DNA of 64,000 nt from Octopus vulgaris (Eukaryota): assembly GCA_951406725.2 (NCBI GenBank), contig OX597824.1:43524001-43588000 (forward strand), in the 5' to 3' direction. The stretch's first letter is position 1; the number at the start of each line of letters is the position of its first letter. Positions 52,070 through 55,640 of the stretch are shown here, piece by piece. The translations under genes were made by a program, and so were the position numbers. Under the pieces are notes generated by a model that worked only from the letters and a program-made list of their open reading frames with translations, was not told where the DNA came from and did no database searches.

Positions 52070-52843
52070 CAAATCTTTAGGGATAGTTTCCAATGCAACT
52101 ATAACTGCTGGGATACATTTTACCCGCACTTTCCATAGTCTCTGTAATTTTATGGCTAGATCCTGCTACTTTGCTACTTTTTCTATACCTTTCATATTGA
52201 TTTTTTCTTCATTTAGGACTGTAAAGTCAATTATCTGGCACTTTCTATTCTCTTTATCTACTACTTCTAAATCAGGCCTTCTAGCTTCTATTACTCTGTC
52301 AATCTGAATGTTAAAGTTCCACAACACCTTGTATTTCTTACTTTCTAGTACCTTACTAGGTTCATGTTCACACCATTTATCAGTATGTCCAAATCCTATC
52401 TTTCTACAGAACTCCCAGTGGATTATTCCCCATGTCGTCATGCCTTCTCTTGTAGTCATTCTGTGCCAGCATGCTACATTCACTTACTATATGAGTAAGG
52501 CTTTCCTCTTTTGATTTGCATAGCCAACATTGGGAATTTACTCAGTTTTTGTCTATCTTGGCTTTTATCCAATTAGTCCTTAATGCTTGATCTTGTGCTG
52601 CTATTAACAAACTTTCTTCTCCCGTTTCATCCTTCCTTTCTGCAAACTTAACTATGCCTCACTACTACTATTTACTGCCACTATACTTGGGAATCTACCA
52701 AAACCTTCTCCTGCCAATCAGATAATTTTTCTTCTTTTTTCTGGTTTTTAACTTCGTTTGGGTTTTTAGTTTCCCTATGTCTTGCTATGACTCTGGCAGC
52801 TTTTAATAATCGTTATTCACTATTACCAACATAGGAGTCTATA
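52070..52843 (-). mobile_element. R4/Dong-type LINE, C-terminal part (continuation of 54720-55640)
   Basis: IAAQDQALRTN...IHWEFC...KWCEHEP...LWNFNIQIDRVIEARRPDLEVVDK...IIDF. Confidence 0.88.
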
Positions 52844-53025
52844 GTATTTACATTATTTACATTATTTACATTATTTACATTTGAAGGATATTTGTCCTCA
52901 TCTTGTTTGTTGTTAACACGTTTCGGCTGATATGTCCTACAGCCTTCATCGGGTGTCTTGGGGAAATTTCGAACCTGGGTTCTCATTCCTAAGGTATTTT
53001 TTTATGGTATTATTATTACTATTAG

Positions 53026-53064
53026 TAGCGTAGTGGTTAAGAGCGTGATTCCGAGTTCGATTCC
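53026..53064 (+). promoter_or_regulatory. tRNA-derived Pol III internal promoter (A-box TAGCGTAGTGG, B-box GTTCGATTCC), shortened spacing
   Basis: Both boxes match consensus; the 18-nt spacing suggests loss of the anticodon arm in this copy. Confidence 0.7.
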
Positions 53065-53149
53065 AGGTAGTGACCTGAATGATAATAATAATAATAATAA
53101 TAATAATAATAATAATAATAATAATAATAATAATAATAATAATAATAAT

Positions 53150-53736
53150 GACCACATCTCACTCCTCTGGAACTTCACCATTCAAACTGACAGGAAGATA
53201 GATGCAAATAGGCCAGACATTATATTGAAAGACTTCAAACAAAGAACATGCCTCCTCATTGATATGACTGTCCCAATCGATATAAACGTATCTGTCAAGA
53301 CCTACCAAAAACTGAGCAAATATAAAGATCTTGAAATAAAAATCAGCAAAATGTGGAAGCTGAAGACTAAAACAATACCTGTTGTCATAGGTGCCCTGGG
53401 AATGATAGCGAAAGGGACTGATTGCTACCTAACTCAGATACCAGGAAACCCCAAAATGGCAGAAATTCAAAAGATAGTGCTCATGGGAACTGCTCATATC
53501 CTACGCAAAATACTCTCTATGTAATCCTAAGGTTTAAAACAAACTTTTTTTATTTATTTATTTATTTATTTTTTTAATTTTTTTTTATGTATTAGACATT
53601 CACTAGTACAACACCAGAAAAAAAAAGAAAAAAAAACCCAAATATATGGCACAGAACTTCCAACCTGTTGTCTCTTGAGGTCTCTGGGTGAGACTTGGAG
53701 CCAACTTGTATAGACATAAGCAAAAGTCAAACATAG
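53150..53736 (+). mobile_element. R4/Dong-type LINE 3' fragment (RLE domain), distinct subfamily
   Basis: LLWNFTIQTDRKIDANRPDIILKD...LLIDMTVP...KYKDLEI...IQKIVLMGTAHILRK; (AAT)n on both sides. Confidence 0.9.
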
Positions 53737-53896
53737 AATAATAATAATAATAATAATAATAATAATAATAATAATAATAATAATAATAATAATAATAATA
53801 ATAATAACAATAATAATAATAATAATAATAATAATAATAACAATAATAATAATAATAATAATAATAATAATAATAATAATAATAATAATAATAATA

Positions 53897-54463
53897 TTCC
53901 AAACATACATTGGAAGCTATGCCAACATTATGGAATAACAACAGAAAAAAGATGGTATAGGCACACACCAGAAAAGGTCACAGAAAACGAGAAAGCAACC
54001 ATACTCTGGGATATGCCGATACACACAGATAGAGAAATTAAGGCCAACAGACCAGATATAGTTGTCAGAGATCATGAAGAAAAAAAATGCTTTCTAATTG
54101 ATGTATCAATACCGGCTGATGACAACGTGTCTCTAAAAGAAATGGAGAAACTCTCAAAATACAAAGACCTGGAAATAGAGGTAACTAGAATGTGGTATCT
54201 GAAAACAGAAACAATTCCTATCATAGTAGGTGCATTAGACATGATAAAAAAATATTCAGACAAATACATAACAAAAACACCAGGACTTACAAACACATAT
54301 AACATACAGAAAATTGCACTACTAGGCACTGCACACATCCTACGCAGAACACTTTCCATACAATAACCATCAGAGCATCACAACAAATCACAGCACATAC
54401 CCAAGGCACACAGAACTGTGCTCGATAGTGAAGTGAAAGCACGCTATAAAAATAAAACTACTG
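53897..54463 (+). mobile_element. R4/Dong-type LINE 3' fragment (same subfamily as 25040-26493)
   Basis: ORF 54013-54366 is nearly identical to 26043-26396; (AAT)n on both sides. Confidence 0.92.
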
Positions 54464-54595
54464 AATAATAATAATAATAATAATAATAATAATAATAATA
54501 ATAATAATAATAATAATAATAATAATAATAATAATAATAACAACAACATCGAAAAATACCTTAGGAATGAGAACCCAGGTTCGAAATTTCCCCAA

Positions 54596-54641
54596 AACAC
54601 CTGATGAAGGCTGGAGGGTATATCAGCCGAAACGTTGTGTT
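54596..54641 (+). ncRNA. Minimal type I hammerhead ribozyme with an intact core
   Basis: AACAC-CTGATGA-A-GGCTG gagggtatat CAGCC-GAAAC-GTT-GTGTT: 5-bp stem I, 5-bp stem II, loopless palindromic stem III and a GUU cleavage triplet. Confidence 0.85.
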
Positions 54642-54719
54642 AACAACAAACAAGATGAGGACAAAATCCGTCAAATGTAAATAATGTACATAACTCCTCA
54701 TCTCTTAAATATAGAATAT

Positions 54720-55640
54720 GAGTCTATATCTACTCTAGCTAACTTCACGCAATCTTCTGCTGATATTAACCCTCTTCCGTCCTCCTTTCTAAGTTAGTAT
54801 AATCTATTCCTGCTCTTGGTTGGAGTCCATTCATATTAAATTCCTTCCTAGTTCTTCTGTCTAGCTTTGCTAATTCAGTTTTTGTCTAATCTACAAAAGC
54901 TGCTAAATATCTAAGTAATGATACTGCTCAAGTATTTACAACGTTCACTAGATTCTGACCATTTAGCTTTGAATACATTAGCTTCAGATCATCCATGTGG
55001 AGCAAATAGTTAATTTTTCCTTTAATATTTCTGCTCTGATACTCTGTCTTTGCCTTCCTTAATACTAAACTGAGGAGGATCAAACATAACAGAAATATTA
55101 AAAGGGATAACGAGTCCCCTTGGAAAATTCCTCTCATAATATTAACTTTCTTTAAGATTGTGTCACCAGAGTAGAGATCTACTTTCCATTTCTTCATGCT
55201 AAAGCTAATTAACTCTCTTACGTTGTCTGCTATACTGAATATACTCAAACATTCACTTACACATGAGTGTGGGGTCATGTCATAAACTTTCTTATAATCT
55301 ATCCATGCTATTGTCACATTTTTCTTTCTAACTTTTACTTCATTTAGAATTGCTTTGTCTATATATAATAGATCCTGCGTTCCTCTGGCCTTCTTCTTGC
55401 AACTTTTCTGTTCTTCTGGCAGTAAATTCTGGTTTCCAAGGTGCTCATAAATGCCTTCTGAAAGCATTCTTGTTAACAACTCCCACACTAGTGGTAAGCA
55501 AGTGATTGGTCTATAATTGCCAGCTGTATTACCCTTGCTTTTATCTTTCATAAGGTGTATTGTCCTCCCTCTAGTCATCCAATCTGGTATTATTCCTCCA
55601 TTAAGGCAATCCTGGAGTTGCTCCCTCAGCCTCCCCTGTT
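54720..55640 (-). mobile_element. R4/Dong-type LINE reverse transcriptase fragment
   Basis: ORF 54928-55578: NYRPITCL, EQKSC, WIDYKKVYD, RGIFQGDSLS, HMDDLKL. Confidence 0.93.

Follow-up and report, generated by a model that had tools for sequence, protein, structure and literature searches.

Position 52835-54728 of a 64,000-nt stretch of the Octopus vulgaris genome (contig OX597824.1, 43,524,001 to 43,588,000; hereafter the window) holds a repeat with a transfer RNA (tRNA)-like head, an (AAT)n spacer and a hammerhead-bearing tail. We consider it probable that this insertion is a short copy of the pseudo-long terminal repeat (pLTR) of a Penelope/Poseidon-type Penelope-like element (PLE), likely made from an RNA with a predicted RNA polymerase III (Pol III) start at a tRNA-derived promoter within the repeat. 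The short form resembles a short interspersed nuclear element (SINE), but is likely produced, in thousands of copies, by an autonomous element's own terminal repeat. The original prediction for this DNA had proposed a non-autonomous, PLE-dependent SINE; the PLE-type ends and footprint fit the dependence, and separateness from the PLE is not supported.

The parent element

The parent was recovered with a Penelope/Poseidon reverse transcriptase (RT) motif as genome query, which gave 288 matches (24 for the control), chiefly from one family. Thirty loci were inspected and 3 dropped as non-family, leaving 27, with L084 and L085 being duplicates. In 16 of the 27, the open reading frame (ORF) is contiguous into the same head ~30 nt past its stop codon, and in 20 the tail lies downstream on the same strand, so that a PLE sharing the tail, as had been anticipated, does exist. 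Long copies read ORF stop, ~30 nt, then head, (AAT)n and tail. The tail comprises the hammerhead and the first ~150 nt of an 835-aa ORF; it reads in frame into the ORF N-terminus, and a 20-mer over this junction occurs 70 times in the genome. Head, tail and ORF start stand in a row at L311, L316, L325, L341 and L342. A rebuilt consensus unit is 2,644 nt long, with the ORF beginning at tail position 20, and its pLTR comprises hammerhead and ORF start, as in Penelope/Poseidon PLEs. Contigs from four other organisms also bridge the ORF end and the head; the head behind the ORF therefore exists beyond this assembly. JGI metagenome contigs yielded no related locus.

The 835-aa product is 57% identical to full-length protein P0005 (RVT_1) and 40% identical to an Anolis protein, and the P0005 N-terminus shares the hammerhead-overlapping peptide TPD.G..PKRCVNN. 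A single ORF carries the RT and, at its C-terminus, a GIY-YIG-type endonuclease, whose motif was read from the sequence; the Pfam GIY-YIG profile gave no score on the one copy tested. A CxxC linker is typical of Neptune elements, not of Penelope/Poseidon. It is not found in this element's ORF, P0005 or P0051 and is present in L061, and in a quick tree the Neptune-type rows occupy a long separate branch. Neptune was rejected as a partner: a Pfam GIY-YIG genome search gave mostly Neptune-type elements, and in 50 of 50 inspected the tail was not the pLTR. As far as sequence can tell, the parent is an autonomous-type, now decayed Penelope/Poseidon element, and head, (AAT)n and tail are its pLTR.

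Several other loci came to light in these searches. The Neptune-type PLE family to which L061:1293-3590 belongs is very young, has open frames of 765-781 aa and gave many GIY-YIG matches that are identical; it ends beside (TA)n and has an unrelated pLTR. A divergent GIY-YIG fragment at L083 ~2780-3220 (minus strand) is unlike both the Neptune and the Poseidon families here. A protein search with the tail peptide had as its sole match the Octopus sinensis gene model P0002, which suggests an exonised or mis-annotated copy.

Insertion footprint in the window and across the genome

The insertion in the window is built as follows.

52835-52843, plus strand: left target-site duplication (TSD) GAGTCTATA, inside a minus-strand host long interspersed nuclear element (LINE)
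52844-53008, minus strand: inverted arm made of positions 1-146 of the pLTR tail; its 'short' end carries additional GTAAATAAT 9-mers
~53009-53025, minus strand: inverted (AAT)n remnant and junction of both arms, from sequence
53026-53080, plus strand: tRNA-like pLTR head, 5'-clipped, with a 16-nt deletion, from alignment
53026-53036 and 53053-53064, plus strand: A box and B box, respectively
53078-53149, plus strand: first part of the pLTR (AAT)n spacer, from sequence
53150-53897, plus strand: nested LINE 3' end a (endonuclease-like ORF end and 3' untranslated region) with its own (AAT)n
53898-54547, plus strand: nested LINE 3' end b plus (AAT)n
54548-54716, plus strand: pLTR tail, start of the Penelope/Poseidon ORF, with ATG at 54567
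54596-54641, plus strand: minimal type I hammerhead overlapping the ORF start, from sequence, fold and the features in PMC4209133
54720-54728, plus strand: right TSD GAGTCTATA

The whole of 52835-54728 is one insertion with a genuine 9-bp TSD. Eight of nine paralogues of the host LINE align over a single unbroken GAGTCTATA site (L265 differs on the left), and the host reading frame (..EDGRGLISAEDCVKLARVDIDSYVGNSE..) is recovered once the insert is deleted. This agrees with the original prediction, which had also named the inverted left copy of the tail, the A and B boxes, the (AAT)n, the two nested LINE ends and the minimal hammerhead, all of which are present. The left arm is 89% identical to the right arm; BLAST aligns it over 52862-53001, additional 9-mer repeats run from 52844, and the core of its hammerhead is altered to CCGATGA. 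From the 5' end of the head ~7 nt have been clipped, and 16 nt are missing from its anticodon arm. The tail, its frame broken by a 1-nt deletion, ends with a ~25-nt 'long' extension after ~54694.

LINE ends a and b are later insertions, outside the element itself. Proper, they cover 53150-53737 and 53898-54465, and both split the element's (AAT)n; from their motif we take them to be of the restriction-like endonuclease (RLE) type. Further copies related to end b lie at 25989-26495 and 50718-51262 of the window. LINE families with an RLE-like endonuclease end are found inserted in (AAT)n tracts, including the pLTR spacer (window copies; L245:2477-3472, oriented).

The right-arm hammerhead is exact, with CTGATGA at 54601-54607, GAAA at 54629-54632 and a predicted cut after 54636, and helices I and II were recovered in its computed fold. 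The minimal type I features given in PMC4209133 are a CUGANGA and GAAA core, an extra base after A9, a G10.1-C11.1 pair, a palindromic 15.2-16.2 and helices I and II; all are readable in 54596-54641. By the same source, ribozymes of this class self-cleave as dimers or with a protein's assistance. U7 is the sole common non-CpG variant in the core. Rfam scored no hammerhead at the locus and ARAGORN no tRNA at the head, and the identification of both therefore rests on motif and alignment tests. The copied RNA had been expected to end at the hammerhead site. Arm 3' ends lie instead ~57 and ~84 nt downstream of the predicted cut, and 5' ends at the cut are not enriched (3 of 40 tail-internal 5' ends fall at positions 87-93), so that the genome bears no trace of cleavage products. 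Judged by where the copies end, the end of the copied RNA is not set by the hammerhead cut.

The family is large. A hammerhead 16-mer occurs exactly 8,638 times in the genome (control 0), and since it is found in 55 of 156 arms unselected for it, we estimate roughly ~24,000 hammerhead-bearing arms, some of the loci overlapping. On contig C1 we mapped 100 loci, made up of 30 and a further 40 (of the remaining 70 listed) hammerhead 16-mer places and 30 head 16-mer picks, which collapse to 93 insertions. A colinear tail accompanies the head in 62 of 70 head-bearing insertions. This co-occurrence had been predicted, and it bears on the possibility that a PLE end had inserted into an unrelated SINE's (AAT)n at this locus only. 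The (AAT)n is indeed a hot spot for insertions, as the two nested LINE ends attest, but a single TSD brackets the whole unit here; genome-wide head-tail colinearity, the continuity of ORF and head, and head plus tail before the ORF start refute such chance nesting, to which we assign almost no probability.

Inverted arms and short TSDs are family traits, as had been foreseen. Both orientations are present in 63 of the 93 insertions, which consist of two outward arms, one with and one without the ~25-nt extension, inside TSDs of 7-13 nt. There are 55 insertions tailed on both arms, and once 5 with an end in neither class are dropped, 45 of 50 pair one long (168-173) with one short (130-154) end, against 25 expected (p 2e-9). 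TSDs of at least 8 nt flank 23 of 46 two-arm insertions, compared with 0.4 for mismatched flanks. An inverted 5'-truncated arm, a one-sided tail and a TSD are described for endonuclease-positive (EN+) PLEs (PMC8557442, PMC3846280), and the insertion footprint is this known biology.

Over 63 arm pairs, 25 derived variants are common to both arms of an insertion, where shuffled pairs gave 7.0 +/- 2.6, and the U7 variant is concordant in 41 of 42 arm pairs; both arms therefore tend to derive from one source. The same pattern would, however, result from fold-back copying or gene conversion. Just 11% of derived variants are shared between arms, with none seen shared by the window's two arms, and an A/G site at tail 49 is uninformative on concordance (p 0.55). 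A stop codon in the ORF frame is common to both arms in 5 of 63 pairs, 4 of them at CpG, which hints weakly at decayed copies having been sources too. Recurrent in-frame tail indels were set aside as evidence, the underlying repeats being 3- and 9-mers.

L334 (C2:185582214-185585233) holds three head-to-tail copies of ~217 nt each, tail 38-173 plus ORF 1-81, with identical joins. The pattern resembles rolling-circle copying of a small RNA with a hammerhead, and the locus is possibly a nascent retrozyme.

The 5' boundary and its possible promoter

We numbered positions from +1, the first base of the tRNA-like sequence, in a count that includes a zero. Among arms reaching +5, 49 of 62 end within -6..+5, where 9% were expected (p 2e-40). 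The end hazard in this interval is 13 times that inside the head, and 13 of 94 head arms pass -7. Exact genome counts fit this: a head 16-mer occurs 4,706 times, a 17-mer just upstream 977 times.

The partial tandems give a second view of the same boundary. Nine of 20 ORF-to-head joins (8 loci) fall at -5 or -4, and in six of these nine 1-11 added bases, mostly A, precede the join; the remaining 11, like 22 that run into the tail, show scattered positions. Joins at -5/-4 would arise if the RT met an RNA 5' end at the G 13 nt before the A box, and then jumped to an RNA 3' end or copied a circle. At L335, L336 and L349 the ORF segment stops at the same base, ORF-side position 234, possibly a preferred RNA 3' end or a shared source.

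In alignment the head is in register with tRNA, with tRNA-Arg the best of six isotypes sampled. The sense strand of the 2,644-nt unit has no run of four T (T4), against a codon-shuffle mean of 2.9 (P~0.02); Neptune ORFs have 8 T4 runs each. Two other repeats recall parts of this arrangement. A tRNA-headed repeat at L066 ~3793-3847 is 72% similar to the head and is a candidate relative of the SINE that donated it. Another, at L083 ~1840-1960 (minus strand), has a hammerhead-like core beside an opposite-strand tRNA-like A box.

These data can be set against another origin, in which the short copies are ordinary solo pLTRs, their boundary is fixed by a Pol II start or a palindrome, and the head is a passive SINE relic in the 3' untranslated region. 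Both PLE pLTR promoters (PMC6765202) and 5' palindromes (PMC3846280) are known, and short and ORF-linked arms show no diagnostic difference. However, the boundary lies 13 nt upstream of the consensus A box, at a purine following a pyrimidine; the A and B boxes have been retained while the cloverleaf has been lost (ARAGORN negative on the window; alignment); the hairpin is weak, at -5.4 kcal/mol, and an RT stall would be expected 3' of a hairpin; and the unit lacks T4 runs. We regard the solo-pLTR origin as unlikely.

A Pol III start in an autonomous-type parent nevertheless has observations weighing against it. The shortage of T4 runs is modest (p 0.07 under a Markov null), and it was scored on a consensus against single copies. 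The start site coincides with a small palindrome, TGCCC-AC-GGGCA, and 5' boundaries of rotifer PLE pLTRs, as described in PMC3846280, are palindromes without any tRNA. Two unstranded RNA-seq runs, compared with a template copy that has a deletion in its head, gave no pile of starts, and the window copy's clipped head shows no start site of its own. L292, L297 and L306 are long copies that reach the (AAT)n upstream of the ORF without a sense head. Among 150 scored copies none has an intact ORF, the longest open frame being 569 aa, and protein activity is consequently inferred from relatives.

The other possibility is that an independent, non-autonomous tRNA SINE lineage captured a PLE tail and spread through its own masters, the ORF-linked copies being chimeric. 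It would accommodate ORF-linked arms being far fewer than short ones and only the minority of head arms noted above passing -7, and the stop codons shared between arms hint at non-coding sources. Head-started arms are also less diverged, at 4.6% vs 6.5%, a comparison biased by exact-16-mer selection. Against this, most long copies have the head at a constant position after the ORF stop, and the bridging contigs from four other organisms repeat that arrangement. Head-started and ORF-linked arms moreover have the same consensus and polymorphisms in common, with no diagnostic difference at a 15% threshold. We think such a lineage quite improbable, and the earlier claim of a distinct SINE with an acquired PLE tail is not upheld: the head belongs to the autonomous element's own pLTR.

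For the short pLTR copy with a tRNA-derived promoter, the following course can be proposed. [quoted passage not shown] The RT/GIY-YIG protein of the element would nick both strands ~10 nt apart; at two points, tail ~146 and ~173, it would prime within RNA left uncleaved, and two cDNAs joined at their far ends would give the inverted layout. In an Anolis PLE (Poseidon), the protein nicks and extends both strands, two internal RT starts in the ORF start define the tail, and hammerhead cleavage is dispensable (PMC11167929). A bolder version, which we hold to be rather doubtful, has the whole 2.6-kb coding unit transcribed by Pol III from the captured tRNA promoter and purged of T4, with short copies propagating themselves via end-to-end jumps or circular RNA.

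Comparison with known systems

The octopus element is like Penelope/Poseidon EN+ PLEs (Anolis PAc, PMC11167929; Adineta Pen2a, PMC3846280; PMC8557442) in its RT and GIY-YIG-type ORF of ~840 aa, a hammerhead over the ORF start, an inverted 5'-truncated arm, a one-sided tail and 8-10-bp TSDs. Unlike the EN+ PLEs described there, its pLTR has a tRNA-derived A/B-box head with (AAT)n, and head-started short copies dominate. Known PLE pLTR promoters are described as TATA/initiator (Inr)-like, and the one-sided tail is ~25 nt in the octopus element vs 30-40 in known PLEs.

[quoted passage not shown] The short form is like tRNA SINEs in size (~78-nt head, (AAT)n and 146-173-nt tail), tRNA-derived head, high copy number and TSDs. 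Unlike them it has no LINE-derived 3' end: in place of the marks of a partner LINE it has a 3' end inside a PLE ORF start and a two-armed, PLE-type footprint, and it is part of an autonomous element. Octopus tRNA SINEs named OK, OR1 and OR2 were reportedly described by Ohshima and Okada in 1994.

In the short schistosome repeats Sm-alpha and Sj-alpha (PMC6765202), too, a type I hammerhead goes together with a promoter of Pol III type. Their tandem transcripts are cut into monomers by the ribozyme, and the available text names no partner enzyme or inverted footprint; the octopus hammerhead, by contrast, is minimal, lies inside the PLE ORF start and does not fix where the copies end. Metazoan non-LTR retrozymes (PMC7761336; bioRxiv 10.64898/2026.07.22.740005) are similarly non-coding and PLE-related, with PLE enzymes proposed for their mobility. 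Retrozymes form head-to-tail tandem arrays, whereas the octopus copies are mostly dispersed inverted pairs with few partial tandems. In a term search, neither 'tRNA' nor 'Pol III' came up in the bioRxiv text. Non-autonomous Chlamys such as MRC1 (PMC8557442) are also short, non-coding and PLE-related, with PLE enzymes proposed, but are without canonical hammerheads.

In the literature searched, with Repbase, Dfam and SINEBase outside the search, we found no tRNA-derived promoter in a pLTR and no PLE-mobilised tRNA SINE, and the parts seen of PMC4758252, PMC6685494 and PMC6962438 contain nothing on this element. The family may already have an entry under a different name. In genome annotation, its copies would pass for tRNA SINEs or for unknown repeats in spite of their PLE ends. 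With so many of them, sequence can be used to test the poorly understood PLE integration cycle: the copies allow the 5' end of the RNA, both RT starts, the nick stagger and the shared source of the arms to be mapped.

The closest parallel for the promoter is found in the TRIMp3 elements Cassandra, Helenus and Ajax (PMC10886601), which have a small-RNA-derived Pol III promoter inside the terminal repeat, with an origin by SINE insertion proposed. Those are non-autonomous LTR elements with a primer-binding site and polypurine tract (PBS/PPT), for which autonomous partners sharing the Pol III LTR are deemed unlikely; the octopus head, in contrast, is carried by the autonomous PLE itself. A Penelope/Poseidon pLTR with a built-in tRNA-like promoter is the likely source of the SINE-like short form. 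Should Pol III prove to make the short RNA, a Penelope enzyme would here have mobilised a SINE-like element that arose in the terminal repeat of the autonomous element; this would be the PLE counterpart of Cassandra and Helenus, but with the promoter retained in the coding element.
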